DNA from: an uncultured Alphaproteobacteria bacterium
GTDB taxonomy: Bacteria; Pseudomonadota; Alphaproteobacteria; JAJFIK01
Reading direction: 5' to 3'
Length of the DNA: 59,702 bases
NCBI GenBank assembly: GCA_964531285.1
Contig: CAZHDI010000010.1
Coordinates: 1-59,702 of the forward strand
Shown: positions 15,705-50,535 of the stretch, piece after piece
Layout: each line of letters starts with the position of its first letter
How positions within the stretch are numbered: position 1 is the first letter of the stretch
Notes under the pieces: model-generated
Database searches by the model: none
Told to the model about the DNA's origin: nothing
What the model saw: the letters and a program-made list of their open reading frames with translations, nothing else
Program-made: the position numbers and the translations under genes

Positions 15705-15721
15705 CCCGCATACGGGGTGTC

Positions 15722-16684: not shown

Positions 16685-16686
16685 TC

Positions 16687-17934: not shown

Positions 17935-17960
17935 GCCTGGAAAATGAGGAGATTTGACGA

Positions 17961-18293: not shown

Positions 18294-18314
18294 TCCTTCA
18301 GCAGAGAGAGTGTC

Positions 18315-19505: not shown

Positions 19506-19506
19506 G

Positions 19507-19974: not shown

Positions 19975-20064
19975 CGTTTCAAGCTGTGGGTGTTTGTATC
20001 AAGCCGGCGGTCCGGCATGCCGTTTCGTATATCCCCCAACCGGTTTATGCGTCCGGCTGAACCC

Positions 20065-20408: not shown

Positions 20409-20471
20409 CCCTCTATTCTCCGCTGGCGTCTTATCCTTTGAGGGCAGGACATTATCGACCGGCGGGCGAGG

Positions 20472-22313: not shown

Positions 22314-22315
22314 CA

Positions 22316-23644: not shown

Positions 23645-23656
23645 AGGATAGCGCGG

Positions 23657-33985: not shown

Positions 33986-33995
33986 GGAGGACCCC

Positions 33996-34952: not shown

Positions 34953-34974
34953 AAGGCGCCTCCTGCTGGCTGGA

Positions 34975-36045
34975 TTAGGGACGGAGAAAGTCGAGGGCAA
35001 CGGGTTGTCCGGTTTCGATGGAATGCTGTGCGGCAAGGCCCATCTGCACCGAGCGCAGACCATCAAGCGCGGAGACATCCGGGTCAAGACCCTGGTCAAG
35101 CGCCCGGTCAAAACGGCGGAGTTGATAATAGGTGGCACCGTGGTGACTACCGGCGGCGAGGGCCTCGGCGGGGACGGCGACATGCTCCAGTGTGGTGCCT
35201 TGCCGGTCGCGGGGATGCCAACCCAGCATGCCGGACGGTATCTTGACTTCCCATTTGCCGTGAGGGCCGACGGCGTAGATCTCCTCTTGTTCGGGCGATC
35301 CCTCCGCAAACATGCATAGATCGAGTACTGCTCTGGCCCCGCCCGCAAAATCGACGATGACATAGGCATTGTCCAGAATATCAGGCGCCCTACCGTCATA
35401 GCGTTCATGGAGATGATTCACATCCTGACCGCCGCTCGCGTAAACGCGGACGGGTTCATCGCGCAGAATGTGGCGCATCAGATCGAAAAAGTGACAGCAT
35501 TTTTCAACCAGCGTGCCGCCGGTGTTCGCGTTGAAGCGGTTCCAGTCACCGACTTTCGGCAGGAACGGGAAACGGTGTTCACGGATCGTCAGCATTTTGA
35601 CCGGTCCGGCCGGGCCGGTGTGGACCCGCTCGATGAACGCGGTCACCGGCGGCATGAAGCGGTATTCCAGCCCGACCCAGAACAGACCGGAATAGGTGTC
35701 TGCCTCCCGGCAGAGCGCCACAGCGTCCGGTTCCGTCGTGCACATCGGTTTTTCCAGCAGGATCGCCTTGCCGGTGCGCATCAGCATGCGCGCGATTGTG
35801 TAATGGGTATGGTTGGGCGCGGCAACAATGAAGGCGTCGATGTCCTGACGATCGAGCAGCGCCGCGATATGCTGCACCGCATCGACGGGACCGATCAGGC
35901 GCTCGGCGAGGGTCCGGGCCGTGTCGAGCGATCCGCGGTCGGGATCGGCCAATGCAACGACCTGAACATCTGGCAGGAGCGCGGCATTACACAAATGTTC
36001 GCATCCCATCATGCCGGTCCCGATAATGGCATATCTGCGCGGCAT
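34975..36045 (-). CDS. Gfo/Idh/MocA-family NAD(P)-dependent oxidoreductase
   Basis: MPRRYAIIGTGMMGCEHL Rossmann N-terminus. ATG at 36045 is preceded by AAGGAG. Confidence 0.85.
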   Translation of the reverse strand: MPRRYAIIGTGMMGCEHLCNAALLPDVQVVALADPDRGSLDTARTLAERLIGPVDAVQHIAALLDRQDIDAFIVAAPNHTHYTIARMLMRTGKAILLEKPMCTTEPDAVALCREADTYSGLFWVGLEYRFMPPVTAFIERVHTGPAGPVKMLTIREHRFPFLPKVGDWNRFNANTGGTLVEKCCHFFDLMRHILRDEPVRVYASGGQDVNHLHERYDGRAPDILDNAYVIVDFAGGARAVLDLCMFAEGSPEQEEIYAVGPHGKWEVKIPSGMLGWHPRDRQGTTLEHVAVPAEALAAGSHHGATYYQLRRFDRALDQGLDPDVSALDGLRSVQMGLAAQHSIETGQPVALDFLRP

Positions 36046-36209
36046 ATCCTGCTCCTTGATGCGCGTGTGCACAGGTGCAGGCCTTATAGCAGATGGGCGA
36101 TCCCGAGGGCGGCACGATCTTGCGAGCGACGCGATCCGACGTAAGCGGTGTCCGGGCGGGCACGGACGCTGAGGGGGTAGAACAGTTTGATGGATATGGC
36201 GCCGGTGGC

Positions 36210-37700
36210 TTAATGCATTATGTTTGCGTCCGGCCACATGTTGGCAATCAGGACGGCAAGGTCCTGCACCACGTCGCCGTAGCTTGGATCTTCGGCCAGA
36301 TTATGGTGCTCGCCAGGGTCGGCGGCGAGATCGTACAACTCGCGGTCGACGGTCCCGGCGCCATGCCATTCCGTGTACCGATAAGGGCCTGACCGGACAC
36401 TGCGGCCATGAATCGATCCGTTGACGATTTCGCTGAAAGCAGCGGTCTCACCAGGCGCATCCGGGTCAGCAATCTGGCCGGCGAAGCTCGTGCCCTCCAA
36501 ATGCGCCGGTGCTGGCAAACCGGCCAGGTCAAGCAAAGTGGGATAAAGATCGACCAGTTCCACGAACGCGTCTGAGACCGCGCCATGCGGGCCATCGGGC
36601 AGCGCCACGATCAAGGGAACGCGGGTGGCTTCCTCGAACAGCATATGTTTGGACCACAGCCCGCCATGCTCGCCGAGCAGGAAGCCGTGATCGCTGAAGA
36701 ACACGACAATCGTGTTATCCGCCAATCCGGACGTCTCCAGAGCATTCAGAACCAGTCCCACCTGGGTATCGACGAGGCTCACGGTCGCATGATAGGCGGC
36801 GCGGGCCTGGCGGACCTGCTCCGGCGTGTGAGCGAGATAATCCGGTACCAGCCGATAGGCGGCGCGCGGCATGTCGGCGCGATCGTTTTCGACCGTCACG
36901 GGCAGGCCGACAGTGTCGAGCGGATGCTGATCGAAATAGGTCCGCGGTGCAACCCAGGGCAGGTGCGGCTTGTGAAACCCGGCGGCGATGAAGAACGGCT
37001 CGCCGGTGCCGCTCTCGCCATGGGCCGTCAGAAGATCGGCGACCCGGCGCGCGGTGCCGCCATCGGGCGTTTGTGCATCGGTCTGATCGGTGGCGCGCCA
37101 CACAAGGGGCAGTCCGGCCCGGCGGCCGAGCCGCCGAAGCATCTGATCCCGGGTCAATCCGTCCTCTGCGCCATCGACCCAGGTGTTGTCGCGCACCTGT
37201 GAACGATCCGTTCCCGGCATGTCATAAGGATTGACCGGTGTATTCTCGGAGATGTCCCAAGAGACCGAGTCGTTGAAACGGTCATGGGACACTTTGCCGA
37301 TGCGGGCCGTGCGGTAGCCGTGATCAGCGAAATGCTCCGGCAGCATACGGATGGCGCCAACAGCCTCGCGCGGCGGTGTGCCGCCCGTGTAGACCCGTGT
37401 GGTACCCGGCCGCGTGCCACTCAGAAAGGACGCGCGGGAGGGATTGCATAACGGGTACTGAACATAGGCCCGTTCGAAGCGGACGCCGCGCGCGGCCAGC
37501 GCATCCATATGGGGAGTGACGGCGGTGGGATGGCCATAACTGCCGAGCGCCGTGTTGAGATCGTCGACGATGATCATCAGGACATTGGGACGCGTCTCGG
37601 CCGCCGACGCGGACGGCTGCATGCCAAGCATCAGCGACATCGACAGGACCGCCAGACAGGCGCGGCGCGGGATCGCGGCGGTTGGACCGTGACAGGGCAT
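36210..37700 (-). CDS. secreted sulfatase (iduronate/choline-sulfatase-like)
   Basis: Signal peptide (possibly Tat, with RR). PNVLMIIVDDLN and C-N-P-S-R (PLCNPSRASFLSGTRPG). ATG at 37700 is preceded by AGGGAG. Confidence 0.9.
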   Translation of the reverse strand: MPCHGPTAAIPRRACLAVLSMSLMLGMQPSASAAETRPNVLMIIVDDLNTALGSYGHPTAVTPHMDALAARGVRFERAYVQYPLCNPSRASFLSGTRPGTTRVYTGGTPPREAVGAIRMLPEHFADHGYRTARIGKVSHDRFNDSVSWDISENTPVNPYDMPGTDRSQVRDNTWVDGAEDGLTRDQMLRRLGRRAGLPLVWRATDQTDAQTPDGGTARRVADLLTAHGESGTGEPFFIAAGFHKPHLPWVAPRTYFDQHPLDTVGLPVTVENDRADMPRAAYRLVPDYLAHTPEQVRQARAAYHATVSLVDTQVGLVLNALETSGLADNTIVVFFSDHGFLLGEHGGLWSKHMLFEEATRVPLIVALPDGPHGAVSDAFVELVDLYPTLLDLAGLPAPAHLEGTSFAGQIADPDAPGETAAFSEIVNGSIHGRSVRSGPYRYTEWHGAGTVDRELYDLAADPGEHHNLAEDPSYGDVVQDLAVLIANMWPDANIMH

Positions 37701-37876
37701 GGCGTTCTCCCTGAGCTGCGGCTCGATGGCCGGCACTCGTTTGCTTGTTTATGCCTGTCAGCTTAGCGGCGATGGAGCGCGCCGGTCCACACGTCCGTCG
37801 GACGGGTCGTCTTTGGCCCGCCGTGGTGCGCATGATACGGTCCCGCCGCGCGAGCGCACAGGCGGGGCTCTGATCC

Positions 37877-38743
37877 ATGACACGACAGTTTCATTTCATC
37901 TCAGGTTTGCCGCGATCCGGCTCGACATTGCTTGCAGCCCTGCTGCGCCAGAACCCGCGCTTTTACGCCGGCATGTCGGGGCCGGTCGCGAGCCTGTTCG
38001 AGGGTGTGGTCGGGCAGGTGTCGGCCGGGTCGGAACTGTCCAGCATGGTCAATGACGAGCAGCGCGCGCGCATCCTGAAGGGGCTGTTCGACAGTTATTA
38101 TGCCGACCGCCGGGAACCGGTAATTTTCGACACCAACCGCGCCTGGACTGCCAAGATGCCGGCGCTCATGTCGCTGTTTCCCCAGGCCAAGCTGATCTGC
38201 TGCGTGCGGGATATCGCCTGGATCATGGATTCAATGGAGCGCCAGTTCCGGGGCAATGCGTTCGAGAATACCCGGCTCTTCAACAATCCCGGGGAGCGGG
38301 CAACCGTTTACACCAGGGTTGAGGCGCTTGCGCATGCGAACCGGCTGGTCGGTTTTCCGTATCATGCCTTGCGGGAGGCCTGCTGGGGCGAGTTCGCCGA
38401 GCAACTGGTGATCGTCGATTACGATCTCTTGGTGGCGCGGCCTCGGGACGTACTGAGTCTCATCTACCAATTCCTCGGCGAAGAGCCGTTCGAGCATGAC
38501 TTTGACGCGGTCGATTATGATGCACCGGAATTCGACACCCAACTCGGCGTGTCGGGTCTGCATAAGGTCCATCCCAAGGTTGGGCCGCGGCCGCGCCAAA
38601 CCATTCTCCCGCCCGATCTCTTCGAGCGTTACGCGAATATGGCATTCTGGCGGGACCTGAAAAACTGTAAGGCCTACCGCATCGTCAGCCAGCCCTCCCC
38701 GGCGGCGGGGGAACCGCTCGCGCCGTCCCCATCCGTCCTGTAG
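37877..38743 (+). CDS. sulfotransferase family protein
   Basis: N-terminal PAPS-binding loop SGLPRSGSTLL. 288 aa. Divergent from the sulfatase operon. Confidence 0.8.
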   Translation: MTRQFHFISGLPRSGSTLLAALLRQNPRFYAGMSGPVASLFEGVVGQVSAGSELSSMVNDEQRARILKGLFDSYYADRREPVIFDTNRAWTAKMPALMSLFPQAKLICCVRDIAWIMDSMERQFRGNAFENTRLFNNPGERATVYTRVEALAHANRLVGFPYHALREACWGEFAEQLVIVDYDLLVARPRDVLSLIYQFLGEEPFEHDFDAVDYDAPEFDTQLGVSGLHKVHPKVGPRPRQTILPPDLFERYANMAFWRDLKNCKAYRIVSQPSPAAGEPLAPSPSVL

Positions 38744-39051
38744 GTGACCGGCTGTCAGCGCGTCCCCCGTGCGTGAAGGCCCTCTAAACAATTGCCAGTC
38801 GTTTAACAGTTTGGTGATTTCCAAGCTGGGGTCTCCCGGTTTGCGTGCACACGCGCCGGGACGGGTCGGCACGCCGTTCGTCCGCACAGCAAAGCCCAGA
38901 TGACCGCGTCCGGGCCGGGGGTCATCCACGCGGCCTCTCGGCTGTGCTCAGGACGATGGCCATGTGCGTCGCGGCCCTCCGAAATTCGCTCCTAAGCCTG
39001 CCATGGGCCGGTCGTGTCCCAAGCATCGGGGCGGAACATCCAACGAGGGGG

Positions 39052-39969
39052 ATGGAGAGTATGACTGCACTATCGAAACATTTGCTGGGCACCGTGGCGG
39101 GGGCGATCGCCCTCGGTGCGGCGGCGTCCTTGTCGGCGGCGGATGCCCGGCCGATGGATTATGACGCCTCCGGCAGTGGGTTCTTCGTCAATACCGACGG
39201 CGACGTGGTGACCAATCATCATGTGATCGACGGCTGTACGCGGGTGCGTCTGGCGGTCGGCACTCAGATCACGGGCGGGCGCGTGCTGGCGTCCTCTCCG
39301 GTCAACGATCTGGCCGTGGTGCGCGCCGACAATCCGTCCGCTCTGGTAAGCGCGAGCCGGACCCCAGAGACCCCGGCTCCAACTGCGGCACGGGTCCAGT
39401 CCGCGCCGCGTCCGTCCGGCGGTATGGTCGCGATTACGGGCGACAACGATTATCAGTATGGCAACAGTTATCGGGACGAGCGCCCGGGCGGGTCCTACGG
39501 GTCCGGCAGTACCGGAGCGGCTGCCGCTTCCGGCGGTTTGAAGCCTTATGCGGTCTTTCGGGCCGGTCGGCTCACCCAGGGTGAACCGGCGATTGCGCTT
39601 GGTTATCCGTATGCGCCGGCTTTATCGGACCAAGTGAAGATCACCTCCGGGCTGGTCTCAAGCACCGCTGGCTTGCTTAACGACACGACGCGGTTTCAGG
39701 TGTCGACCCCCATCAATCCGGGAAACAGCGGCGGTCCGATCTACGGCAAGGACGGTCTGGTGATCGGGGCATCGGTCTCGGGGCTGAACAACGAAGTCTT
39801 CTCGGCCACCCAGAACAATAATTTCGGGATCAAGACGACCACGATCCTCCAATTCCTGGGCGATCACGGCATCCGGTATCACACCGCAAATGGCGGCACG
39901 GACGTTTCGACCGAAGATCTGTTGAAAACGGCCGGACCGACCACGGTGCATATTTTGTGCAACCAGTGA
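39052..39969 (+). CDS. secreted trypsin-like (S1/S1C) serine protease with low-complexity insert
   Basis: Signal peptide. His in VVTNHHVIDG, Asp in NDLAVVRAD, Ser in NPGNSGGPIY. An alternative ATG exists at 39061. Confidence 0.8.
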   Translation: MESMTALSKHLLGTVAGAIALGAAASLSAADARPMDYDASGSGFFVNTDGDVVTNHHVIDGCTRVRLAVGTQITGGRVLASSPVNDLAVVRADNPSALVSASRTPETPAPTAARVQSAPRPSGGMVAITGDNDYQYGNSYRDERPGGSYGSGSTGAAAASGGLKPYAVFRAGRLTQGEPAIALGYPYAPALSDQVKITSGLVSSTAGLLNDTTRFQVSTPINPGNSGGPIYGKDGLVIGASVSGLNNEVFSATQNNNFGIKTTTILQFLGDHGIRYHTANGGTDVSTEDLLKTAGPTTVHILCNQ

Positions 39970-39998
39970 CCGGCCGGAGTGTGTGGGGAGATCGGGCC

Positions 39999-41396
39999 AT
40001 GATCATCCGGATCGTGATGAGTATCCTGCTCATGCTTGGCGGCGTGGCCGGCGCGGGAACCGCCTGGGCCGCCGACGGGCACGACCGGGCGGAGACGCTC
40101 GTGGTGTGGGGCCATTGGGGATATCTCAAGCGCGATGCCCAGGCCAGCCTGGCGGCCATCCTTGATGCTGGACGCGGCACGGCGCTTGGACGGGAACGCG
40201 ATGCGCTTGCTTCGTTTTCCGATGATTTGGTGAGCCGGCCAGCGGTCGGTCAGGTGCTGAACCAGTGGTCGAGCCATCCTCTGGTGCGCGGCGAGTCCGA
40301 TGTGGCCGCCGCTTATCAGCGGGCTCACGGGCGCCCCGCGCAACCGAAGCATCTGGAGAATCCGGAACGGTATTTCGACCGGGCCTATGCGCTCATTCTG
40401 ATTGGCGGGTTCGAGGATCACTCGCCACTCAAGACCTCGGTTGATATCCGCGGGCAGGTGGTCGATCTGCACCATGATTATTTCACCGCGACCGTGACCG
40501 CCGTTCTCTTCGACCTGAAATCCGATGAGATCGTCCTGTCGGCCACGGCAACGACCGTGCGGCCCGTCAAGGAGCAGGACCGGCCCGTCACCGGTCCGGT
40601 GCGGATTGCCGGATTCTTCCGGGAGGCCTATCAGGGCGCGGCCGACAAAGCGCTCACGCGTCTGACCCGGATTATGGGCCAGACCGCGCCGGATACCGTG
40701 GCGGACCGGTTCGACACCTATATGGTGACCAGCGTGGATATGGCGCCAGCGACGGGGCGCGAAGGCCTTATCAATCCGCGTGCGGTGTTCCAGTTCGATG
40801 GTTACAATGCGCAGGACGATGACTTTTGCCCGCGCCAGGCCCTGTGCCGGAACCGGGATCCAGCTTGCAAATCCTTCGTCAGCATGATGGCCAACGGTGT
40901 CACCAGCGCCTTGTCCCAGGCCGGTCATTTGACCATGCCGCCCTGGGGCGTTTCGGACTGGCGGGCGCGGAGCAATCACAAGATTTCCGTCTCGCTGGCC
41001 TTGCCGCAATTCGATTCGCCGATGGCCAAGCGGGCGCTTGAGTTCACCATCGATCCGCGAAAGGCCCGCTACAAGGTGCGCGCCCGCCTTGACGGCATCA
41101 CCCTGCGCCAGCCCGACAGCGGGTCGCGCTATGTCACCCACAACCGCTATTTTGCGCTTGTCAGCCATACGGCCACCAAGACGCGGATGTCGGCGGACGG
41201 CGCGGCCTGTATTCCGCGCGGTGACCCGGTGGAGGCCGCCGGCGCGGATTTCGTTGGTGTTTATGCGGACAATCCGCCGAGCCATCTGCCGCCGGTCACC
41301 GGCAAAATGGAACGGATGTTCTATTTTGCCGCCATCAACTGTTCCCTGCGCAAGCACGGCGATCCCAATGAGGTGTGCGATGCCCGGCAAAACTGA
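39999..41396 (+). CDS. secreted hypothetical protein
   Basis: Signal peptide (GAGTAWA), protein-like composition, RBS GGGGAG. The long antisense ORF is Arg-rich. Confidence 0.6.
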   Translation: MIIRIVMSILLMLGGVAGAGTAWAADGHDRAETLVVWGHWGYLKRDAQASLAAILDAGRGTALGRERDALASFSDDLVSRPAVGQVLNQWSSHPLVRGESDVAAAYQRAHGRPAQPKHLENPERYFDRAYALILIGGFEDHSPLKTSVDIRGQVVDLHHDYFTATVTAVLFDLKSDEIVLSATATTVRPVKEQDRPVTGPVRIAGFFREAYQGAADKALTRLTRIMGQTAPDTVADRFDTYMVTSVDMAPATGREGLINPRAVFQFDGYNAQDDDFCPRQALCRNRDPACKSFVSMMANGVTSALSQAGHLTMPPWGVSDWRARSNHKISVSLALPQFDSPMAKRALEFTIDPRKARYKVRARLDGITLRQPDSGSRYVTHNRYFALVSHTATKTRMSADGAACIPRGDPVEAAGADFVGVYADNPPSHLPPVTGKMERMFYFAAINCSLRKHGDPNEVCDARQN

Positions 41397-42327
41397 CCGT
41401 TTTATATCCCGTCTTGTCATCGGCGCGGGGCTTTTGATCGGTGCCCTGGTACCGGCGAGCGCTTTGGCGCACAAACATGAGATCATGGTGACGCTGCCGC
41501 CTTCGGGTGATGCTGCGGCTTGTGAGCGCGCCGCGGAGAAAGCGGCGGGGCGCGATGCGGTGGCACAGTCCGTCGCCTGGATCGACGATGCGTACACGAA
41601 CACTGCCAAGATGCAGGCCATGGCCGGGCGGTTCGTCGAGCGGACCATTGTCGAGACGGTCGATGCCTCGGCGGGCGCCTGCTCGGCAACCGTCCTGGTG
41701 CAGATCGACGGCGCGGAATTGGAAGATGCGATGGTCGATGCGGTCGATGTTGGCGGCCGCGACATCGGCATTCTGGTGCACTTTTCGCGGGACGGGGAAC
41801 CGGTGAGCCTGGGCGCCAGCGATGTCTATCTCCCGACCGTGGCGTTCCAGGATGCGCTGGCCCAGACGGGGTTCGAGACCATTCCTTTGGGCGAGATGCA
41901 CAAGGGCTTTCAGTCCATGCAGGATGCCAAGCGCTGTGCTGTCACCGGCGGTGACTTCAAGTTCTGCTACGAGGATCAGGGCCTTGTGGACAGCGTGCTC
42001 GATCTGTTGGACGGGCTGCGGCAGGCCTATCGGGATGCCGGCAACCCGAACATGACCTTCGATACCGCGCCGAAATTCATTCGGCTTTGGAAGGGCAATC
42101 TCGTGGCCGTCGGTACGCTGAGCACCGTCTTGTCGCCGGACGGTTATGCAATGACCGGCACCGCGGCGATCGAGTTTTACTCGGTCAAGGATTCCGGCGC
42201 GGCCGCCGCTCCCTTCGAAAAGCAGTTCAAGATCAATGTTCACGGCGCGCGCGCGGATGCCGAGCGGGCGGTGATCAACAAGCTTGGCGATGCGCTGGCC
42301 CGGCATGCCGCCCAAAATCTGCCCTGA
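41380..42327 (+). CDS. secreted hypothetical protein (two alpha/beta modules)
   Basis: Signal peptide (VPASALA). The start overlaps the previous gene by 17 nt. The track ORF (41038) N-terminus is out of phase with the upstream gene. Confidence 0.6.
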   Translation: MPGKTDRFISRLVIGAGLLIGALVPASALAHKHEIMVTLPPSGDAAACERAAEKAAGRDAVAQSVAWIDDAYTNTAKMQAMAGRFVERTIVETVDASAGACSATVLVQIDGAELEDAMVDAVDVGGRDIGILVHFSRDGEPVSLGASDVYLPTVAFQDALAQTGFETIPLGEMHKGFQSMQDAKRCAVTGGDFKFCYEDQGLVDSVLDLLDGLRQAYRDAGNPNMTFDTAPKFIRLWKGNLVAVGTLSTVLSPDGYAMTGTAAIEFYSVKDSGAAAAPFEKQFKINVHGARADAERAVINKLGDALARHAAQNLP

Positions 42328-42396
42328 TCCGGCAATGGGGCGAAAAGAAGGTCACGGATCTTCGATTTCTTTCACATCCAATCAACGGGGGATGAG

Positions 42397-43338
42397 ATGA
42401 CACAGTTCCGCACCACGACACTCGCCGGGCTCGCGACCGCTGCCGTCCTGGCGTTCGGCACGCTGACCGCCGCACCGGCGCCGGCCCAGGCCAACATGTT
42501 CGGCAAGCTGTTCGCCGGCATGGCCGATGGCATGGAAGAACACGGACCGTGCCTGGCGTTCGGCGACAAACAGATGGATTTTGGGAATTCCCATCAGCGT
42601 GATGACGCCATGGGTCTGCTCAAGGGCTTCGGCGAGCAGTTGGCCGAGGGGGTTGTGAATGACGTCATTCGCGGCTTGGCCGGCAAGTCGCCCTATTGCC
42701 GGACGCAGGACCCGGTCGAAAAGATGATGCTGATGGGCGTCGCGATGGACAATGCGACGTTCCATATCGGCCAGGGTCTGGTCGATGCCGAGTCGGCGCT
42801 GGGGCTGAAAAGCGATCTCCACCGCCAGGTCGCCTCGTTCGACCGGGCGCGTAATGGTGCGACGCTGGCCGAGCAGTTGGGGACGTCGCGGCAGCAGATC
42901 ACCAGTTCCCTGTCCGATGGTGCGGCCAAGGTGTCGCTGGAAATCAAGCGTCTCCAGGCAAGCGGGGGGCTGACCCCGGAAATCCTGACGCGCCTGGATG
43001 CGGCCGACGCCAAGATGCAACGCGGGATTTACTACTACATGATGGCCGGCGCCGGGGCCTATGTGTTCCAGGATCAGCTCAAGAACAATCAGCGGGAGCT
43101 GACCAATGCGCTGCGCAGCTCCGGCCAGTCGGATCTGACACAGGATTTCCTGGTCAGCGTGCCCCGCCGGGCCCTGGCCATCTTCGGCAATCTCGATGGC
43201 GTGGGCGATGTGTCCGGCTCCATCCGGGAAGGCCGGTCGAAAAAAGAATTGAAGAAGCTCAAAAAGGCGACCAAGGCCCAGCACAAGGTGAGCCGCAAGG
43301 AGGCTCAGGAGATCGCTGAACTGTTCGGTCAGGTCTGA
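42397..43338 (+). CDS. secreted hypothetical helical protein with Lys-rich C-terminus
   Basis: Signal peptide (APAPAQA). Helical composition. KKELKKLKKATKAQHK tail. Confidence 0.6.
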   Translation: MTQFRTTTLAGLATAAVLAFGTLTAAPAPAQANMFGKLFAGMADGMEEHGPCLAFGDKQMDFGNSHQRDDAMGLLKGFGEQLAEGVVNDVIRGLAGKSPYCRTQDPVEKMMLMGVAMDNATFHIGQGLVDAESALGLKSDLHRQVASFDRARNGATLAEQLGTSRQQITSSLSDGAAKVSLEIKRLQASGGLTPEILTRLDAADAKMQRGIYYYMMAGAGAYVFQDQLKNNQRELTNALRSSGQSDLTQDFLVSVPRRALAIFGNLDGVGDVSGSIREGRSKKELKKLKKATKAQHKVSRKEAQEIAELFGQV

Positions 43339-43398
43339 TGGACGGCGGGCGGGGCGCGCTCAGCGGTCCGCTCAATCCGTCCCGCTAACCGGCATCGC

Positions 43399-43443
43399 GC
43401 CGAAAAAATATCGAAAAAACAAGGCTTTGCAGATTTTTTCGGC
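43399..43443. promoter_or_regulatory. A/T-rich 11-bp perfect inverted repeat in an intergenic region
   Basis: GCCGAAAAAAT (43399-43409) and ATTTTTTCGGC (43433-43443) separated by 23 nt, about 100 nt upstream of the 43549 gene. Confidence 0.3.
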
Positions 43444-43548
43444 CGCGACGGGAAAAAAGATCCCTGATCTGTCCATAAGCCAGCATGCGAGTTCCAAAGC
43501 TGGTTTTCCGATCCCCGAGGGGGGACGCACTGAAGAAAGGGCGTAGCT

Positions 43549-44514
43549 ATGAAATCTCTTCTGACTGCGGCGGGTATCGCCGTTTCGGCCCTGGCCTGGG
43601 CCTTCACTGCCGCTCCGGCGGCTGCCTATAACGGCGAAGGCCTGTCGCTCGTCGTTCTCGCTGAAGATGCCGACCGTAATTCGGTGCGGGCCGACAGCGA
43701 TATCTTCCGCCGAGTCACCTCGGAGCTGCAACAGCAGTTCGCCGACTACGACTTCAATGTGATCGACGAGGAATTGTGGCTGGCGCGGATGCGCTGGACC
43801 CGCGACACCCGTCTGTCCAAGGGCGATCTGGCCGGACGCATCATGAATGCCTGTAATCAGGGCGACGACATCACCTGCCCGCGGGCGATGGCGGCCATCA
43901 AGATCCGGGCGTATGCGGAGGATCTGGGGTATGGCAGCCGGGCCCAGGTCCGGGTGATGGGCGATGTGCTCGATGCCGAGACCGGACAGTTCCTGGGCAG
44001 CTGGGAGCATCCGCTGATGGAATTCCCGGCGCCGCGCGGGTGCGACGGTGTGTGTATCGAGGAAATCATCGGCAAGAACGCCCGCGATATCGCGACTGTG
44101 CTGGGCGACACGCTCCGAGTGAAGCTTGCGGTCCTGGAGCGCGGCGAAGCGCGGCCGACGCATTCGGGCTACACCTCGGACGATGCTGGCCTCATCAACC
44201 GCTATCTCTTGACCTTCAAGAACTTCAGCCTGCGGGAATATCTGGCGATCGTCGATATGATGTCGTCGGACTTCCCCAAGGGGGTCGGGTTCGGCAAGCA
44301 GACCGGTGCGGTGCCGCTCATCAAGGTGAACTACAACACCCGGGCGAGCAATGAAGAGATCAACCGCTGGCTGAACATTCTCCTCCTGGAGATGGATTAC
44401 CCCGAGACCCACTTTAAGGTTCTCACCCAGCGCAATGGCCGTGAGATCCTGGTGGAAAAGGTCGTGGCCAACGCGCAAGGCCGGCGCAGCAACCCTAGCG
44501 ATCTGTATCACTGA
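43549..44514 (+). CDS. secreted hypothetical protein
   Basis: Signal peptide (TAAPAAA). Protein-like composition. Confidence 0.6.
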   Translation: MKSLLTAAGIAVSALAWAFTAAPAAAYNGEGLSLVVLAEDADRNSVRADSDIFRRVTSELQQQFADYDFNVIDEELWLARMRWTRDTRLSKGDLAGRIMNACNQGDDITCPRAMAAIKIRAYAEDLGYGSRAQVRVMGDVLDAETGQFLGSWEHPLMEFPAPRGCDGVCIEEIIGKNARDIATVLGDTLRVKLAVLERGEARPTHSGYTSDDAGLINRYLLTFKNFSLREYLAIVDMMSSDFPKGVGFGKQTGAVPLIKVNYNTRASNEEINRWLNILLLEMDYPETHFKVLTQRNGREILVEKVVANAQGRRSNPSDLYH

Positions 44515-44623
44515 GGTCTGCAGGGGAGGGGCCCGCCCGGCACCTCCCCCCACCGTCTTTATCGCTTCTGTCAGGTCTGCGTCAGGGCCGCCCGGTGCGG
44601 CTCAACAGGGAAGGAGTGCCCCC

Positions 44624-44953
44624 ATGGCTCCCATCATCAGACTGCTCCTCGTTGGTTTTGCCGCCGTTTCCATCTCGGCTTGCGCCACCGCTCACGGCGA
44701 CGTCCCCAGCGACATCAGCCAATACGATCAGCCGCTGGGCGATGGTTACGGGGAGACCCGCTTTGTGGTCTCGCGTGATTTCAAACTGCGGACCTCGCCG
44801 AATGTGAATGCCCGCGTGATGGACCGGATCCCGGAATCGACCCGGCTGACCGCACGGGTCACACAGGTGGACGATGTCTGGTACCACATCGACATCACCG
44901 GCGGTCCCGATGGCTATATGTTCGGCTTGCCGCTTCAACACGATCCGTATTGA
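44624..44953 (+). CDS. small lipoprotein with bacterial SH3-like domain
   Basis: Lipobox ISAC. C-terminal LRTSPNVNARVMDRIPESTRLTARVTQVDDVWYHI resembles SH3b. ATG at 44624 is preceded by AAGGAG. Confidence 0.65.
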   Translation: MAPIIRLLLVGFAAVSISACATAHGDVPSDISQYDQPLGDGYGETRFVVSRDFKLRTSPNVNARVMDRIPESTRLTARVTQVDDVWYHIDITGGPDGYMFGLPLQHDPY

Positions 44954-45036
44954 TGCGCAAGGCCGGATCTTAGGGCGTTGACAAACCGAGCGTTTTAGCA
45001 AGATAGCCGAAGAAGCACGAAAACCCATCAGTACCC

Positions 45037-45146
45037 GTCATGCCCGCGGACGCGGGCATCCAGCACCGCACGGCACTCACTCCAAGCGGAGACCTGAAAC
45101 CGTCGCCCCTGGATGCCGGATCTGCGCTGCGCTTGTCCGGCATGAC
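45037..45146. repeat. MITE/REP-like intergenic element made of two hairpin modules
   Basis: GTCATGCCCGCG-ga-CGCGGGCATCCAG (45037-45063) and CTGGATGCCGGA...TCCGGCATGAC (45109-45146). The ends are mutually inverted. Resembles the widespread GTCAT[TG]CCCGCG...GGGA/CATCCAG alphaproteobacterial repeat family. Confidence 0.6.
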
Positions 45147-45181
45147 GACCTCTGGAGAAAATGACGTTCTCATCAGTCTGA

Positions 45182-45207
45182 GACCCGGCCCAGCCGGGTC
45201 TTTTTTT
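45182..45207 (+). terminator. Rho-independent terminator
   Basis: GACCCGGC-cca-GCCGGGTC followed by TTTTTTT. Confidence 0.8.
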
Positions 45208-45291
45208 ATGGCGTTTGAGCCGTACCGGGAAAATTTGGGCCTGATCCGTCCATACGCCGTTACAGCGGATCCATTTGAAGGGAACAGGGCG

Positions 45292-46257
45292 ATGATGAAC
45301 GGGATTTGGGTGCGGTGCGGCGTTTTCGCCGTTGGCTTTGCCGGCCTGACACTGCTGGCGATGGCGACGGCCATGGCGTCGCACGGGCCGCGCGTCGAAG
45401 TGCAATACAAGAAAACGGATATCAAGGAGATGGTCCGGGCCGAGGCGATGCGTCAGGGCACCGTTCCGATCGCGCTCGCGCTCGGCGTGGCCCGGGTGGA
45501 ATCCAATTTCAATGCCAACGCGCTGAGCTCAGCCGGCGCCCGCGGGGTGATGCAGATCATGCCGCGGACCGCGCGCACCGAATTCGGGGTCGATCCGGAC
45601 GATCTTTGGGACCCGGCGTTGAATATCCGCCTGGGGATCAGATTTCTGTCCCGCCTCTATGCCATCTACGGCAACCGGTGGGACGCGGCCCTGTCGCATT
45701 ACAATGGCGGAACCCTGGACGGCGATCCCTTGACCGCGCCGCCCCATGGCTACACCCGGGGGTATGTCGCGTCCGTGCTCAAATGGGCCGACCGCTATGA
45801 GGCCGAAACCGGCGTCGCGCTCGCGGGCGGTGAGCGCTACAGCGATCCGGCGCCCGTGACCGCCACGTCCGATGCCGCGCTTGCCGCGCGGTTCCGGGCC
45901 CGGCTTGATGCGCAAAACGGCAGCGCGCCGCAGCCCGTGTCCGAAACACAGGCGCCGGAGCCCCACGTAATCGACGTCGGCTCCGCGGTGACCGCTGCCG
46001 GTGTTGCGCCGGTCTGGGCATACCGGTCGACTGAACCGCGGATGACCCTCAATGCGGGCCCGGCGGCGGCGCAGCCCGCCTATCGGACGGCGCAAGTGGC
46101 GCCGCAGAACGCACAGGATTGGCGCGCGGCGCAGCCGGTCTCTGCCGCCGCCGTCTATCCCAATGACCCGGGGTCGTCCTTCGATCGGGTCGTGCGCCGC
46201 GACATGGGTGAATTGCGCGCCCGTTTCCGGGGCGCTATTCGTAGGGATCGCAACTGA
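45292..46257 (+). CDS. lytic transglycosylase (SLT domain) with Ala/Pro-rich C-terminal tail
   Basis: Signal anchor. ALGVARVESNFNANALSSAGARGVMQIMPRTA with the catalytic Glu. The track ORF N-terminus (45040-45291) is a translation of the repeat element. Confidence 0.85.
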   Translation: MMNGIWVRCGVFAVGFAGLTLLAMATAMASHGPRVEVQYKKTDIKEMVRAEAMRQGTVPIALALGVARVESNFNANALSSAGARGVMQIMPRTARTEFGVDPDDLWDPALNIRLGIRFLSRLYAIYGNRWDAALSHYNGGTLDGDPLTAPPHGYTRGYVASVLKWADRYEAETGVALAGGERYSDPAPVTATSDAALAARFRARLDAQNGSAPQPVSETQAPEPHVIDVGSAVTAAGVAPVWAYRSTEPRMTLNAGPAAAQPAYRTAQVAPQNAQDWRAAQPVSAAAVYPNDPGSSFDRVVRRDMGELRARFRGAIRRDRN

Positions 46258-46305
46258 GTGGAGACGGCGCGGCGGCGCTTTGGGCTGCGCGGGGGGCAGC
46301 AGGAC

Positions 46306-48000
46306 ATGGCGGACACGAGACCCGGAGTGCGCAAGCTTGTCGTGCTGTCCTTTCCGAAGGGCGAATTGCTCGATGCCCTGAAGCATCTGGAGATCGCCAG
46401 GACCCATCCCGGCGATGCGCCGCTGGTCTTCAAGCCCAAGACCATCCTGCGGATCACCCAGTTGCTGGTCGGCGGACCGGTGGATTTCGGGGTCTTGCGT
46501 CTGTGCCACTTTCTTGTGGCGGTGGCGGCCACCGATGAGGATCTGGGCAGCTTCCCCATGATGTTCCGGGGATCGCCGCGCGATGCGCGGGCGATCTTCA
46601 CCCGCGAGGCCCTGCAGCCCGTGATGGGTGCCCGCGTCAGTGCCTCCAAAGCGGGCATTGAACTGTCTTATCCAGACGGCGATTTTACCATCGATTACAG
46701 CGCCGTGCCGGAACTGCTGGCTCTGGCCGAGGTGCTGGCCAACGGCCTCGGCTATCACACGATCGGCGGGCTGATCGACGCGGTGCATGAGAGCCCGGTG
46801 TCGATGCAGCGGGTGAAAGACATCGCTCAATCGGTGATGCCGGAGTTCCGCACCTGGATCGAGCGCAATATGGCGGTGTCGCGCCAGAGCCGTCAAAAGT
46901 TCAAGAAGATGATCGATTTTCTGGAACGGTTCCGAGGTGCCGATTTCAGTACGGACGATATCGACGATGAAGCCGTTCTTGAGCTGTGGAAAGAGCATGC
47001 CGGCTCGGACGACGATTTCAAATTGTTCGGTACCGCGCTCGACAGTCTTCTGTTTCTCATCCGGCAGGCCCATGAGGGCCAGCGGCGCCTTGAGGAAGAT
47101 CGAATGGGCGGCCTCGATTTCGCTTACGAGGATGGCCGCTACACGATTGATCCGGGCTATGATCCTGAAGCCGACGATTTCGATACGTTCGCATCGTGGT
47201 TTGTCTTTATCAACGGGTCCGATGACGACGATGCGGATTTCGTCGCGCCGTTGAAAGATGCTGGCAATATTCTGTTCGCCAAGCAATGGGCCTGGCTGGA
47301 CCCTTATTGGCCCGCGCCGGACGGTCCGCATCTGATGCGCTCTCGCCTGCGGGCCGACGCCTTCGGAGCGCTTCAGCGGCGAATCGTTCAGGCACTGCGC
47401 CGCAATGCCAGCCGTACAGAGATCTGCGGGCTGATCGGCGTGGCGCCGGAGGAAACATATGATGTGATCGCCGGCCGGGCGGAAAAGGCGCATTCGGATA
47501 TTTGGACCGCGGCCCACGCGATCCTCCATGTCCTGATCGCGAGCGAACATGAAAATGCGCTGCATCTTCTGTACACGCTGCGTCAGCGGGATGTCGATCT
47601 GCGCAGTTTTGTCCAGACACTCGTTCTCGAAGATCTGGTCGACACCGAGGCCCTGGCCCGGGACGGGCTCGACGCGCTGGCCGATGCCTTTTTCGAGGCC
47701 CTGCGGCGCGGAGATATCACGCCCGATGACGTAGCGACGGTCGTGCGTCAGTCGGAGGGCTTCTGGCGTAAGCTTAAAGATCGGGCTGGTTTCAAGCCCG
47801 CCGAGATTGAAGACCCCGTCCGTGTGGAAAGCTTTGCCGAGGTGACGGGCGATTTGACGAAGGCCGTGACCCGGATCGGATCCGTGCGCACCATGATCGA
47901 TCGCGCGTGCCCGGCGGGGGAGCGGGAAAATCTGTTCAAATCCGACTATCAGAGTTTTGCGGGGCTGTTCCTGCGTCTCTATGTGGACGGTATTGAGTAG
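46306..48000 (+). CDS. hypothetical cytoplasmic protein (~565 aa, acidic, no recognisable motifs)
   Basis: Protein-like composition versus an Arg-rich 678-aa antisense ORF. An alternative GTG start at 46258 abuts the SLT stop. No Walker A motif seen. Confidence 0.65.
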   Translation: MADTRPGVRKLVVLSFPKGELLDALKHLEIARTHPGDAPLVFKPKTILRITQLLVGGPVDFGVLRLCHFLVAVAATDEDLGSFPMMFRGSPRDARAIFTREALQPVMGARVSASKAGIELSYPDGDFTIDYSAVPELLALAEVLANGLGYHTIGGLIDAVHESPVSMQRVKDIAQSVMPEFRTWIERNMAVSRQSRQKFKKMIDFLERFRGADFSTDDIDDEAVLELWKEHAGSDDDFKLFGTALDSLLFLIRQAHEGQRRLEEDRMGGLDFAYEDGRYTIDPGYDPEADDFDTFASWFVFINGSDDDDADFVAPLKDAGNILFAKQWAWLDPYWPAPDGPHLMRSRLRADAFGALQRRIVQALRRNASRTEICGLIGVAPEETYDVIAGRAEKAHSDIWTAAHAILHVLIASEHENALHLLYTLRQRDVDLRSFVQTLVLEDLVDTEALARDGLDALADAFFEALRRGDITPDDVATVVRQSEGFWRKLKDRAGFKPAEIEDPVRVESFAEVTGDLTKAVTRIGSVRTMIDRACPAGERENLFKSDYQSFAGLFLRLYVDGIE

Positions 48001-48015
48001 ACTGGAGGCATTGAC

Positions 48016-48576
48016 ATGGCGGTTACGTGGAGCAAGTTGCCCCCCCGCACGAGAACCGAGATCGAACAGGCATTCGGTGTTATGGACACCGCGAAGACCC
48101 TACTGGACGAGGTGAGCGCGATGGATGCGCCGTCGCGTCCGGGTATTCGCGATCTCTATCACTTTATGCTCCGCCCGCAGAGCGATGTGTCGGGCCGGGT
48201 CCAGCGTGCGCTGCGCGACGATCCGCGGGTGCAGCGGGATTTCGACAGCCTTCTGGAGCGCAATGGCGCCTTTGCGTTTCCGCAAGCCGCGGCGGCCAGT
48301 TCGACCCAGATCGAGGAACGCACCGACGTGGAAGGGTTGGCGCGGCTTCGGCTCCTGCCGTCGGATTCTCTGCCCGACGAGGCCTATCTGCTGATCGACC
48401 TCGATCCGTCGAACGGGCTGGAGCCGAAATGCCTCTATGTGAGCGGGACCGATGTCGGCTACATTGCGATACCGCTTGCGCCGCCGGAAAATGATACGAT
48501 CAGCATGATCCTGTCGTCGTCCAGCGACGAGGCGCGCGCGCTGTGGGACCCCAAGGCGAAGGTCCATCTGAAATAG
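48016..48576 (+). CDS. hypothetical protein (186 aa)
   Basis: RBS GGAGG. 15 nt after the upstream stop. Protein-like composition. Confidence 0.6.
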   Translation: MAVTWSKLPPRTRTEIEQAFGVMDTAKTLLDEVSAMDAPSRPGIRDLYHFMLRPQSDVSGRVQRALRDDPRVQRDFDSLLERNGAFAFPQAAAASSTQIEERTDVEGLARLRLLPSDSLPDEAYLLIDLDPSNGLEPKCLYVSGTDVGYIAIPLAPPENDTISMILSSSSDEARALWDPKAKVHLK

Positions 48577-48588
48577 ACGGTCGAGGCC

Positions 48589-49977
48589 ATGACGGATATT
48601 GCGGTCTATATTCCGACAACGAACGGGGCGAGCCAGGTCTTGAGTCTGACCAAGATCGGGCTCGATGGGTCGGACCGTGATTATCCGTCAATGATCGGCG
48701 TCAATCACACGACCCGGTCGATTTCCGGTTTACGGATTCGCTATGACGAGTTCGTCCGCGAGCCGACGGGCGTTATCGAGCGGCATACCGATCACCGGTC
48801 GTACCGGGTCGATGTGTCGGGCGATATCAGCCATGGCGACAGCTGGCAGCTCGGCTTGTTCATTGCTCATGCCCTGGCCGAAAGCGGTGCGGTCGGTCTT
48901 CAAGGCGATCGCGGGGAAAGTCTGACTCTCAAAGGCGGTCTTCACACCCGGTCCCAGAAGGCATCGGAAACCGCGCAGCAGGGCGAGGCCGGGATCGTCG
49001 TCTGGGCGACCGGGATCGTAACCTCCGGCCTTCATGTGCGCAGCGTCGGAGAAATCCTCTGTAAACTCGATCAGTCAGCGGATTTGTTTGAGGTAGCGCG
49101 TAAAGCAGGCGCCCGTGTTGTGTTTGCTCTGCCGGCGGAAAATCGTACGCCGGAGCTAGAAGCTTATTTCAAGACCCTGTCCGGTCATTTCTCAGAGTGC
49201 GATGTGGTTTTTGTCGATGACGTTGTTTTTGGCGAGCCTGCCGGTGGTGCGCAAACCGCGGTGACGGCGATGCCGTCCGCGGCATCTCCGGGCGCGCGCC
49301 CCGCCGCTGGTACGTCAGGTTTACCGATCAAAGCTGGCGCCATGGTGGCTGCAGGCGTTGCCGGGGCCGCGGTTCTGGCTTATGCGCTTTCGGGGCCGGA
49401 TGAAACAACGATGCCGGCCGCTGACGATCAGGCGGCGGCGGCATTCACGTCATCTGACCCTGTGCCGGAGCCCGCCGGCGGTTGGTCCCCGGCTCAAGCC
49501 GGCCGTTTGATCACCCATGTGGATGTGGATTTGCGGTTTCGCGATGATGTCTCCTTAAGCCTGCCGTGGGCCGGGGCGCCGTCGGCCGTCCTGCCGAGGG
49601 ATGCCGGGCGGATCGTGACCCATCGGGCGGGTGTCGATGTTGTGCTGGAAAATCCGAGTACGGAGCGCCTGGATGTTGCCTATGCGATCATTGACCAGCA
49701 ATCGGGGCTTTTGGCGTCCGGCCATGGTCAAGTTCAGCCGGTTGGCCGCTGGTCCGTGCCTTTGGAGGGCGACATAGGCGATCTTGAGGAGCGGGCTGTT
49801 TGGCTCTTTGCGGCGCCTCACCTGGCCGTGGATTTTTCCGAGGTCTTGGGAGGCGGTCTGTCGGACGGGACGGTTCGCGATATCCGGCAGTGGGCGGAGG
49901 ATCGCAATGTGGCGAGCTTCCGACTCGGCCGCAACACGCTGGCTGGCGATGTTCCGGCGACATCGTATACACCTTGA
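48589..49977 (+). CDS. bitopic membrane protein with N-terminal Lon-protease-like (S16-like) domain
   Basis: VDVSGDISHGDSWQLGLFIAHALA and VVWATGIVTSGLHVRSVGEILCKL...ARKAGARVVFALPAEN parallel the Lon GPSAG...MTGEI..G.V..IGG..EK...A...G...V.IP..N pattern. One TM helix (AGAMVAAGVAGAAVLAYAL). Confidence 0.55.
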   Translation: MTDIAVYIPTTNGASQVLSLTKIGLDGSDRDYPSMIGVNHTTRSISGLRIRYDEFVREPTGVIERHTDHRSYRVDVSGDISHGDSWQLGLFIAHALAESGAVGLQGDRGESLTLKGGLHTRSQKASETAQQGEAGIVVWATGIVTSGLHVRSVGEILCKLDQSADLFEVARKAGARVVFALPAENRTPELEAYFKTLSGHFSECDVVFVDDVVFGEPAGGAQTAVTAMPSAASPGARPAAGTSGLPIKAGAMVAAGVAGAAVLAYALSGPDETTMPAADDQAAAAFTSSDPVPEPAGGWSPAQAGRLITHVDVDLRFRDDVSLSLPWAGAPSAVLPRDAGRIVTHRAGVDVVLENPSTERLDVAYAIIDQQSGLLASGHGQVQPVGRWSVPLEGDIGDLEERAVWLFAAPHLAVDFSEVLGGGLSDGTVRDIRQWAEDRNVASFRLGRNTLAGDVPATSYTP

Positions 49978-49992
49978 CGGGGAGGACATGAG

Positions 49993-50535
49993 ATGAGCCT
50001 GCATCGGATCACATTACGCGCTAGGGGCGGCACTCTTGCCGCGGCCGTCGCGGTGCTGGTTGTTGCCGCGCCGGCGGGTGCAACAACAAGCGAGCGCTAT
50101 GACCGGGAGGGTTACATCTCGGCGTTGACGCCCATTACCGGCGACGAGACGCCGGCGAAGGTCGATCTCTATCTGACCTTCGCGTTCGGGTCTGCCGCAC
50201 TCACCGGCGACGCCCGGAACCAGCTTGACGTGCTGGCCGAGGCGATCCTGTCGGACGGCTTGCAGAGGGCGCGCTTCGGTCTCTACGGGCATACCGATGC
50301 CGTCGGTTCGGCGGCTTATAACGAGGATCTCTCAGCCCGCCGCGCCCGCGCCGTGCGGGATTATCTTGTTGGCCAAGGGGTCACGCCAGACCGGCTCGAT
50401 AGCCGTGGTTTCGGGGAAACCCGGCCGAAAAATCTGCTGGACCCTGAAGCCGCCGAGAACCGCCGGGTCGAGGTTGTCAATCTGACACCGCCGCCGGCGC
50501 CCGCCGGGTCTATGACGCCCATTACCGGCGATTGA
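49993..50535 (+). CDS. OmpA/MotB-family peptidoglycan-binding protein
   Basis: Signal peptide. FAFGSAALT ... GHTDAVGSAAYNEDLSARRARAV ... NRRVEV. Confidence 0.9.
   Translation: MSLHRITLRARGGTLAAAVAVLVVAAPAGATTSERYDREGYISALTPITGDETPAKVDLYLTFAFGSAALTGDARNQLDVLAEAILSDGLQRARFGLYGHTDAVGSAAYNEDLSARRARAVRDYLVGQGVTPDRLDSRGFGETRPKNLLDPEAAENRRVEVVNLTPPPAPAGSMTPITGD

Follow-up and report, generated by a model that had tools for sequence, protein, structure and literature searches.

A membrane-anchored Lon-fold protein with a conserved Ser-Lys dyad, encoded beside two new partner proteins in an uncultured alphaproteobacterium: a candidate ATP-independent signalling protease

Lon-fold proteases that act as signalling switches independently of ATP have so far come from very few systems, mainly CalpL, which belongs to type III CRISPR. 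CalpL is an ATP-independent SAVED-Lon protein with a Ser-Lys dyad, which binds the small protein CalpT in a stable complex and cleaves it with a conserved Ala as the P1 residue (10.1101/2021.12.06.471393; 10.1101/2024.05.08.593097). With SsCalpL the P1 residue is A194 (A194|S), the S1 pocket fits only Ala or Gly and a fragment of ~9 kDa is released (10.1101/2021.12.06.471393). CCaCalpT is cut within 202-LAAA, between A204 and A205 (10.1101/2024.05.08.593097), and the C-terminal CalpT fragment is of ~9-11 kDa (10.1101/2021.12.06.471393; 10.1101/2024.05.08.593097). Activation of CalpL is achieved by ligand-induced filament formation, and cleavage takes place in trans (10.1101/2024.05.08.593097). 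Another described protease, YlbL/DdcP of B. subtilis, has a transmembrane-Lon-PDZ layout with an S234/K279 dyad and no ATPase (PMC6051672). Here we analyse a 59,702-nucleotide (nt) stretch of DNA from an uncultured Alphaproteobacteria bacterium (contig CAZHDI010000010.1; 'the window' below), in which an open reading frame (ORF) with an ATG start encodes a Lon-like membrane protein of 462 amino acids (aa), hereafter the target (Table 1). At its N-terminus lies a diverged Lon-fold domain that retains the Ser-Lys dyad and the Thr that supports it, and no AAA+ module is present. We consider it fairly probable that the target is an ATP-independent Lon-fold Ser-Lys protease, tethered by a transmembrane helix to a periplasmic input, and that it works with the products of the two upstream genes as a signalling protease which is activated by oligomerisation and cleaves a partner.

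A preliminary description of the gene, made from the sequence alone, had aligned its product with the E. coli Lon proteolytic domain (P-domain). For the present comparison the E. coli Lon sequence was retrieved and translated, and both stretches of that alignment hold. The target segment HGDS85WQLGLFIAHAL parallels KDGPS679[9 protein letters not shown] of E. coli Lon, and WAT141G142IVTSGLHVRSVGEILCK159L...RVVFALPAEN parallels AMT704G705[15 protein letters not shown]722EK...TVLIPFEN. An AlphaFold2 (AF2) model of the target, built from a 40-sequence alignment, has a predicted local distance difference test (pLDDT) of ~90 across residues 1-102 and 136-215. The two halves are separated by the insertion of ~35 aa already pointed out in the preliminary description. 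It is absent from the aligned homologues, connects the Ser helix to the TG strand and is modelled as disordered (pLDDT <50).

When the model was compared with the PDB using Foldseek, the 27 best matches were all Lon P-domains, the best being human LONP1 (E 1.4e-5), with B. subtilis LonA, BsLonBA, yeast PIM1, archaeal Lon and LonC among them. The structural match to Lon and LonC protease domains, on which the preliminary description had made its reading depend, is therefore there. The E. coli Lon P-domain (1rr9_F) gave a template modelling score of up to 0.58, normalised to this 180-aa P-domain, and isolated P-domains span 0.52-0.58. CalpL (7qda) was also found, as a weaker match (E 0.039), and no other credible match followed Lon. 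The same model had no relevant Foldseek match among viral structures (BFVD), and VP4 was not recovered.

The relation was also recovered between profiles. A Lon profile was made from 57 P-domains (38-76% identity to E. coli, from 75 loci) and aligned with the profile of the target family by hhalign with -M 50. The alignment had a probability of 91.9%, a P of 6.9e-7 and a score of 48.8 over 97 columns. It equated G83-x-S85 with G677-P-S679, T141-G142 with T704-G705, K159 with K722 and N185 with the Asn of FEN, and so upholds the pairing of catalytic Ser and Lys proposed earlier. Column-shuffled Lon profiles, 20 in number, scored at most 18.0 (minimum P 0.07) and the reversed profile gave a P of 0.22; with these clean controls, the real score places the Lon alignment beyond chance. 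With the target's insert included in match states the alignment spanned the Lys half only, and against the single E. coli Lon sequence it was not significant (P 0.08).

Scans of the target with Pfam (at E<=1), NCBIfam and PADLOC gave no matches, and a PDB sequence search with it returned noise only. Among 105 family members scanned with Pfam at E<=0.001, matches were limited to five families, each in 1-2 members, and did not include Lon_C. Judged as a member of the Lon family (MEROPS S16 / PF05362), the domain has the fold and the dyad and stays below the Lon_C gathering score. An entire branch of the Lon superfamily thus escapes HMM (hidden Markov model) libraries. The preliminary description is also borne out in that no AAA+ module is present: profile searches of the target gave no ATPase, AAA+ or AAA-like module, and the Lon-like domain begins at residue 1.

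Compared with canonical Lon (LonA, LonB, LonC), the target shares the P-domain fold and the positions of Ser, Thr-Gly and Lys. In contrast to canonical Lon, it has neither an AAA+/AAA-like module nor an N-domain and lies below Lon_C detection; its serine motif reads S-W-Q-L, whereas that of canonical Lon reads S-A-G-I, and it has an extra invariant residue, H94. Canonical Lon degrades processively, whereas the context of the target points to site-specific signalling. General quality-control proteolysis was rejected as a function, the target having no unfoldase and dedicated partners.

The first homologue search yielded 3 proteins, and a profile of their N-terminal domains yielded 59. An exhaustive search of 1.84 billion cluster representatives retrieved 641 at E<=1e-3 and 220 at E<=1e-10. 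The family thus comprises ~640 clusters at 50% identity, and every name given by the sources is 'hypothetical protein'. The conserved unit corresponds to the first ~180 aa (215 aa in the target). Across 94 full-length domains, which are otherwise ~25-45% identical, T10, Y52, F55, G61, R73, G83, S85, W86, H94, G142 and K159 are invariant, and the position of T141 is always occupied by T or S. The target, which is the founding example of this large undescribed family paired with two partner proteins, has Ser28 (48670-48672) and Gly37 (48697-48699) within the family motif E-D-P-x-V-R-S-V-V-C-L, with a 5-aa insertion nearby. The closest relatives of the cassette are found in Thalassobaculaceae, Nisaea and other Rhodospirillales; the distribution of the family is patchy and includes a gammaproteobacterial (Moraxellaceae) metagenome-assembled genome (MAG).

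This conservation bears on whether the domain is active. The preliminary description had left the choice between an ATP-independent Lon-like protease and a pseudo-protease sensor; the first is supported, as a prediction, by the fold and the dyad, and the second is disfavoured by a Ser and a Lys conserved in 94/94 homologous domains. A catalytically dead Lon-fold scaffold or adaptor, devoted only to oligomerisation or partner binding like the C-terminal domain of RadA/Sms, would be compatible with the failure of the Lon_C HMM, with S-W-Q in place of the canonical S-A-G at the Ser and with the loss of two family-conserved residues in the target. We nevertheless regard it as highly improbable, since Ser, Lys and T/S-G have been kept in sequences so diverged elsewhere and known inactive Lon-fold domains are without the dyad (10.1101/2021.12.06.471393, on RadA).

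The only hydrophobic segment of the target is located at residues 245-269 (Kyte-Doolittle 19-mer maximum 1.88), in agreement with the helix announced at about 245-268 in the preliminary description. The N-side flank carries a net charge of +1 and the C-side flank one of -4, which fits an N-in/C-out orientation. A hydrophobic segment immediately follows the Lon-like domain in 117/140 family representatives. What comes after it varies: mostly it is an unrecognised domain of ~200 aa, in many cases containing conserved cysteines, and now and then FGE-sulfatase, DUF4384, DUF4189, VHL-beta or three cytochrome c domains. Maturation of cytochrome c domains takes place only outside the cytoplasm. The member carrying them (P0083: Lon-like domain, helix, then three cytochrome c domains) therefore supports N-in/C-out, which puts the protease on the cytoplasmic and the variable domain on the periplasmic side. 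Together with the flank charges and the family layout, it also speaks for the periplasmic domain postulated earlier. A single helix in N-in/C-out orientation, with a cytoplasmic protease and an extracytoplasmic C-terminal domain, is thus a well-supported prediction for the target. Its periplasmic domain has no cysteines and is poorly modelled, with weak Ig-like Foldseek matches only and no Pfam match. As for other members, the P0083 fusion suggests a redox or haem-based periplasmic sensor, and P0138 combines the Lon-like domain with RHS repeats and a PDZ domain.

In some members the Lon-like domain is fused instead to nSTAND1 (P0100, P0155, P0196) or NACHT (P0108, P0130). These STAND fusions carry WD40, TPR or HEAT repeats in place of the transmembrane and periplasmic parts, and the Lon-like domain stands at the N-terminus, which is the usual effector position of STAND proteins. 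G-S-W, H, T-G and K are all retained in the nSTAND1 and NACHT fusions. The input thus differs from that of CalpL: the target is without SAVED or cyclic-nucleotide input, its sensor being a transmembrane helix with a periplasmic domain, or a STAND NTPase in its relatives. YlbL/DdcP is like the target in being a membrane-anchored Lon-type domain without ATPase. In YlbL, however, an N-terminal anchor precedes Lon and PDZ, and the protein acts on the largely extracellular YneA (PMC6051672), whereas the Lon-like domain of the target precedes the helix and is predicted to be cytoplasmic, with no PDZ and with two dedicated cytoplasmic partners.

To define what accompanies the Lon-like gene, we used metagenomic homologue loci and 18 reference genomes (Thalassobaculum, Nisaea, strain BAL199, several Rhodospirillales MAGs and one Moraxellaceae MAG). 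Clustering of the ORFs of 26 loci gave the Lon-like gene in 26, a ~560-aa protein in 25 and a ~186-aa protein in 25; the window proteins of these two families are named big580 and mid186 below. Other recurrent genes were far rarer, namely SLT (8 loci), a secreted 321-aa protein (6) and a caspase-like C14 peptidase (5). SLT lies directly upstream of the big580 homologue in its 8 loci, and the homologues of the 321-aa protein lie upstream of SLT in their 6, the Moraxellaceae MAG included. The partners were also found beside STAND forms. In L101, proteins of 579 aa and 186 aa accompany a Lon-like::nSTAND1 fusion and are recognised by hhalign at 99.8% (big580 profile) and 98.3% (mid186 profile), and L102 encodes proteins of 558 aa and 174 aa, followed by a C14 peptidase and a Lon-like::NACHT fusion. 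Since the partners are retained beside transmembrane and STAND forms alike, the protease domain and the two partners form the invariant unit, and sensors can be swapped. The genes at 38.8-43.3 kb of the window were ruled out as members of the module, being without homologues in the other loci.

Neither mid186 nor big580 has a signal peptide or a hydrophobic segment, so that both are expected to share the cytoplasm with the protease domain. Neither gave a Pfam, NCBIfam or PADLOC match (Pepco, EACC1 and MBL included), and PDB sequence searches with the two profiles returned noise only. Conservation in the mid186 family is low (mean column identity 34%) outside a central motif, its sole near-invariant feature. 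Among 25 distinct sequences, 23 have P89, 24 have Ala at each of positions 92, 93 and 94, and 24 have A or S at position 95; the consensus is P-x-Φ-A-A-A-[A/S] (Φ = V/L/A), followed by [S/T/D]-G. The motif, at residues 89-95 of 186, divides the N-terminal half from a C-terminal half of ~10 kDa. Like CalpT, mid186 is small and has a conserved Ala-rich site in front of a ~10 kDa C-terminal piece, although a cut in mid186 is only a candidate event. Conserved linkage and this motif give strong contextual support to the upstream gene products as candidate substrates, a role that the preliminary description had already considered for them.

The AF2 model of big580, made from 14 sequences (pLDDT 77.8; predicted template modelling score 0.72), is all-alpha, with two halves at ~20-284 and 330-580. 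The loop between them contains an invariant G293, with G287 and E294 close to invariant. Foldseek found no structural relative of this model in the PDB (best E 0.46), and big580 is thus predicted to have a novel all-alpha fold. Weak matches to transporters and alpha-pore-forming toxins were discounted as evidence. Searching for big580 homologues with a profile returned the window protein only. A comparison can also be made with CalpS, which is an extracytoplasmic function (ECF) sigma factor; unlike CalpS, big580 has no sigma-factor profile match, and its fold is predicted to be novel.

The big580 loop raises the possibility that the biochemistry is the same and the substrate another one: the protease would cut big580 in its disordered loop (285-327), and mid186 would be a docking adaptor or an inhibitor. 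The loop, with a pLDDT <50 between two well-modelled helical halves and a conserved G...GE-x-DP, would suit this, and zymogen cleavage at two sites or in a linker is documented for other protease-effector modules (10.1101/2025.11.14.688446). However, S1 pockets of the CalpL type favour Ala or Gly (10.1101/2021.12.06.471393), and the loop offers nothing rich in either residue that would equal the AAA motif of mid186 as a P1 candidate. Moreover, it is the mid186 gene, not big580, that adjoins the protease gene, overlapping it in L003 and L004. We therefore judge this alternative unlikely.

Birnavirus VP4 cuts at small-residue, Ala-rich sites. Like the target, it is a stand-alone Lon-fold Ser-Lys domain without ATPase; unlike the target, it is a viral polyprotein processor acting in cis. 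By the same token the Lon-like domain could be autoproteolytic, cutting its own linker and freeing itself or a fragment from the membrane. The target linker (215-245) is rich in Ala, Gly and Pro, and ATP-independent viral Lon-fold proteases do self-process (cited in 10.1101/2021.12.06.471393). Yet the linker has no motif conserved across homologues, and self-cleavage leaves both the two obligatory partners and the AAA motif of mid186 unexplained, which makes it very unlikely.

The favoured scheme, in which the partner is cleaved in trans, can be laid out as follows. Within a catalytic domain facing the cytoplasm, S85 would be the nucleophile and K159 the base. A signal perceived by the variable periplasmic domain would alter the oligomeric state of the Lon-like protein, and in the STAND-fused relatives NTP-driven oligomerisation would do the same job. 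Lon-like domains brought together in this way would become competent to cut in trans and would cleave mid186 at the Ala-rich site A92-A94/S95 (AAA|[A/S]). Parting of the two mid186 halves would then release or activate big580, the presumed output. We infer catalysis, activation by oligomerisation, the partner cut and its site, and the role of big580 by analogy. The parallel with the CalpL-CalpT-CalpS system lies in an AAA-less Lon-fold Ser-Lys protease, a fused sensor and two encoded partners.

Several observations weigh against this scheme. The Pfam Lon_C HMM (PF05362), a match to which had been proposed as a check in the preliminary description, misses the target (E<=1) and 40/40 homologues (E<=10). 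The target is a divergent member without the family residues E28 (92/94) and C37 (91/94), and its activity could be altered; in addition, its 35-aa insert sits beside the active-site helix and is unique to it among the aligned homologues. The transmembrane helix comes from hydropathy and a medium-confidence model, and CalpL itself was formerly mis-predicted as membrane-bound (10.1101/2021.12.06.471393). As for the partners, mid186 has no detectable sequence similarity to CalpT, and its AAA motif could be structural instead of a cleavage site. Nor does big580, the presumed output, match anything in Pfam, NCBIfam, PADLOC or the PDB. Finally, PADLOC gives no match at the locus, and no family copies were detected in plasmid or phage collections (tblastn with one family member).

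A sensor-fused protease with a constant partner activated by cleavage is now regarded as a dominant logic of prokaryotic defence, and such modules link trypsin-, caspase- or subtilisin-type proteases to MBL, alpha/beta-hydrolase, Pepco or EACC1 (10.1101/2025.11.14.688446; PMC7159879). The target module resembles them by its N-terminal protease in the effector position of STAND or other sensors, its constant partners and its exchangeable sensors. It differs from those listed by the Lon fold of its protease (CalpL apart) and by its main sensor, which is transmembrane and extracytoplasmic. It also differs from the CalpL system in having no cas/CRISPR genes among the scanned neighbours. Caspase-like Peptidase_C14 genes often lie beside homologous triads (L003 3202-4575; L102 5061-5882), and in L006 (9142-14836) the neighbours encode a Ser/Thr kinase, an OmpA protein, a DUF4384 protein and a TPR-CHAT protein. 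A neighbourhood of C14, kinase and CHAT genes is typical of conflict or programmed-cell-death systems, which is only suggestive here.

The neighbours within the window lend themselves to a different function, namely housekeeping envelope signalling, in which the module would report peptidoglycan or envelope status together with SLT and OmpA-like proteins and have no part in defence. The window triad is flanked within one operon by SLT and OmpA-family genes, SLT being present in 8 loci and the 321-aa protein in 6, and a run of secreted-protein genes precedes the operon, which fits the sensing of cell-wall status. Besides, the loci lie on chromosomes, plasmid and phage collections yielded no copies, and PADLOC gave no match. 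On the other hand, the triad protease is fused to nSTAND1 or NACHT with WD40, TPR or HEAT sensors, and caspase-like C14, CHAT, protein kinase and DUF4384 genes are among its neighbours. Combined with the patchy distribution and repeated swaps of the C-terminal domain, these features are hallmarks of conflict systems (PMC7159879), and we find a purely housekeeping role rather unlikely.

An AAA-less Lon is not in itself a new idea, LonC, CalpL, VP4 and YlbL having preceded the present case. In the literature searched we found neither this Lon-like family, nor the two partner families, nor a Lon-like protease linked to STAND NTPases, and Lon is not mentioned in the main surveys of conflict systems. 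What is new is the architecture of cytoplasmic protease, transmembrane helix and periplasmic sensor, the partners and the set of sensors: a Lon fold diverged past the curated profiles underlies a family of ~640 clusters and is wired to extracytoplasmic sensors or NLR-like NTPases. A bolder proposal, which we advance tentatively and with more doubt than conviction, is that of a new class of proteolytic switch. In it a Lon-fold protease would be the output both of single-pass transmembrane receptors (outside-in) and of STAND/NLR-like NTPases, and on receptor oligomerisation an AAA|[A/S] cut of a dedicated 186-aa adaptor would free a 580-aa all-alpha protein of novel fold, the executor of a response that may be immune, lethal to the cell or directed at the envelope. 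Should this hold, the protease-effector immunity of bacteria would gain a fifth class of protease along with two new protein families, and there would be a rare bacterial case of a transmembrane receptor-protease whose catalytic domain is cytoplasmic. With catalytic residues defined, a candidate cut site narrowed to four residues and three small proteins that are soluble or easily truncated, the proposal can be tested cheaply, and such a test could uncover both a new effector gated by a protease and a new route of transmembrane signal transfer in bacteria.

Table 1. Coordinates of the target gene, its operon and linked features in the window (RBS, ribosome-binding site)
Feature	Position	Strand	Basis
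Lon-like membrane protein gene (target), 462 aa	48589..49977	+	ORF; RBS-like GAGG just 5'; identical product on record at NCBI
Predicted cytoplasmic Lon-fold protease domain, residues 1-215	48589..49233	+	AF2, Foldseek, hhalign
S85 codon, predicted nucleophile (G-D-S-W-Q), = E. coli Lon S679	48841..48843	+	codon checked; 94/94 conserved
T141-G142 codons, = Lon T704-G705	49009..49014	+	T141: T 82, S 12 of 94; G142 94/94
K159 codon, predicted general base, = Lon K722	49063..49065	+	codon checked; 94/94 conserved
Lineage-specific 35-aa disordered insertion, residues 103-137	48895..48999	+	none of 39 aligned homologues; pLDDT <50
Predicted single transmembrane helix, residues 245-269	49321..49395	+	hydropathy; model helix 248-267
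Predicted periplasmic region: Pro/Ala/Asp-rich linker, then beta-rich domain	49396..49974	+	pLDDT 30-60, strands 340-408
Partner gene mid186, 186 aa, predicted cytoplasmic; candidate substrate/adaptor	48016..48576	+	25/26 loci, directly upstream of Lon-like gene
mid186 motif P89-Q-A-A92-A93-A94-S95-S-T97 (PQAAAASST), candidate cleavage site	48280..48306	+	near-invariant in 25 sequences
Partner gene big580, 580 aa, predicted cytoplasmic, all-alpha; candidate effector/regulator	46258..48000	+	25/26 loci
big580 disordered inter-domain loop, residues 285-327, with G287...G293-E294-x-D-P	47110..47238	+	pLDDT <50
SLT-domain lytic transglycosylase, N-terminal anchor; probable first operon gene	45208..46257	+	Pfam SLT E 1.7e-22
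OmpA-family peptidoglycan-binding protein, signal sequence; last operon gene	49993..50535	+	Pfam OmpA E 3.6e-21; GGAGG RBS
321-aa secreted protein, signal-like N-terminus, recurrently linked to cassette	43549..44514	+	upstream of SLT in 6 loci

The target belongs to a co-directional operon in the order SLT (longest ORF 45040-46257), big580, mid186, target and OmpA, with successive intergenic gaps of 0, 15, 12 and 15 nt. An RBS of the GGAGG/GAGG type is found upstream of each of the mid186, target and OmpA genes, and an OmpA gene is also close to the homologue in L006. The strongest terminator-like hairpin of the region (45180-45202; 10-bp stem with 7 GC pairs, T7 tail) falls inside the longest SLT ORF. 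The SLT start is therefore probably at 45208 (MAFEPY) or 45292 (MMNGIW), where the operon would begin. The 405-aa product of the full SLT ORF has no exact entry in the protein collection, unlike the products of its neighbours. The big580, mid186 and target genes (46258-49977) share one reading frame, and in several loci the mid186-homologue gene overlaps the Lon-like gene by 4 nt, e.g. in L003 (7447-8004 / 8001-9155) and also in L004. The common frame, the short gaps and these overlaps suggest translational coupling of the triad.

Upstream of the operon, at 38845-45000 (+), secreted or periplasmic proteins are encoded by a run of genes that all point the same way. It includes a Trypsin_2 peptidase (38845-39969), signal-like proteins without Pfam match (39957-41396, ~41400-42327 and 42397-43338), the 321-aa protein, which is the only one of the run to recur beside the triad elsewhere, and an SH3_3 lipoprotein with a likely start at 44624 and the lipobox ISAC. 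Farther upstream, at 20472-26546 (+), a GT2 glycosyltransferase gene is followed by three tandem DUF3131 paralogues (444, 498 and 484 aa; E to 3e-146). At 9584-11476 (-) lies the gene for an RTX-type protein of 630 aa, which has DUF4114 and 11 matches to HemolysinCabind repeats; it adjoins glycogen synthase and glycogen phosphorylase genes (11585-15704). The G+C content is 0.54-0.58 at 10000-27000 and 0.60-0.64 elsewhere in the window, which has no tRNA genes. A cluster at 31327-38743 comprises sulfatase, sulfotransferase and TauD dioxygenase genes. TauD is also directly downstream of the triad in L002 (2959-3813), and its presence near the triad in both places is probably a coincidence.

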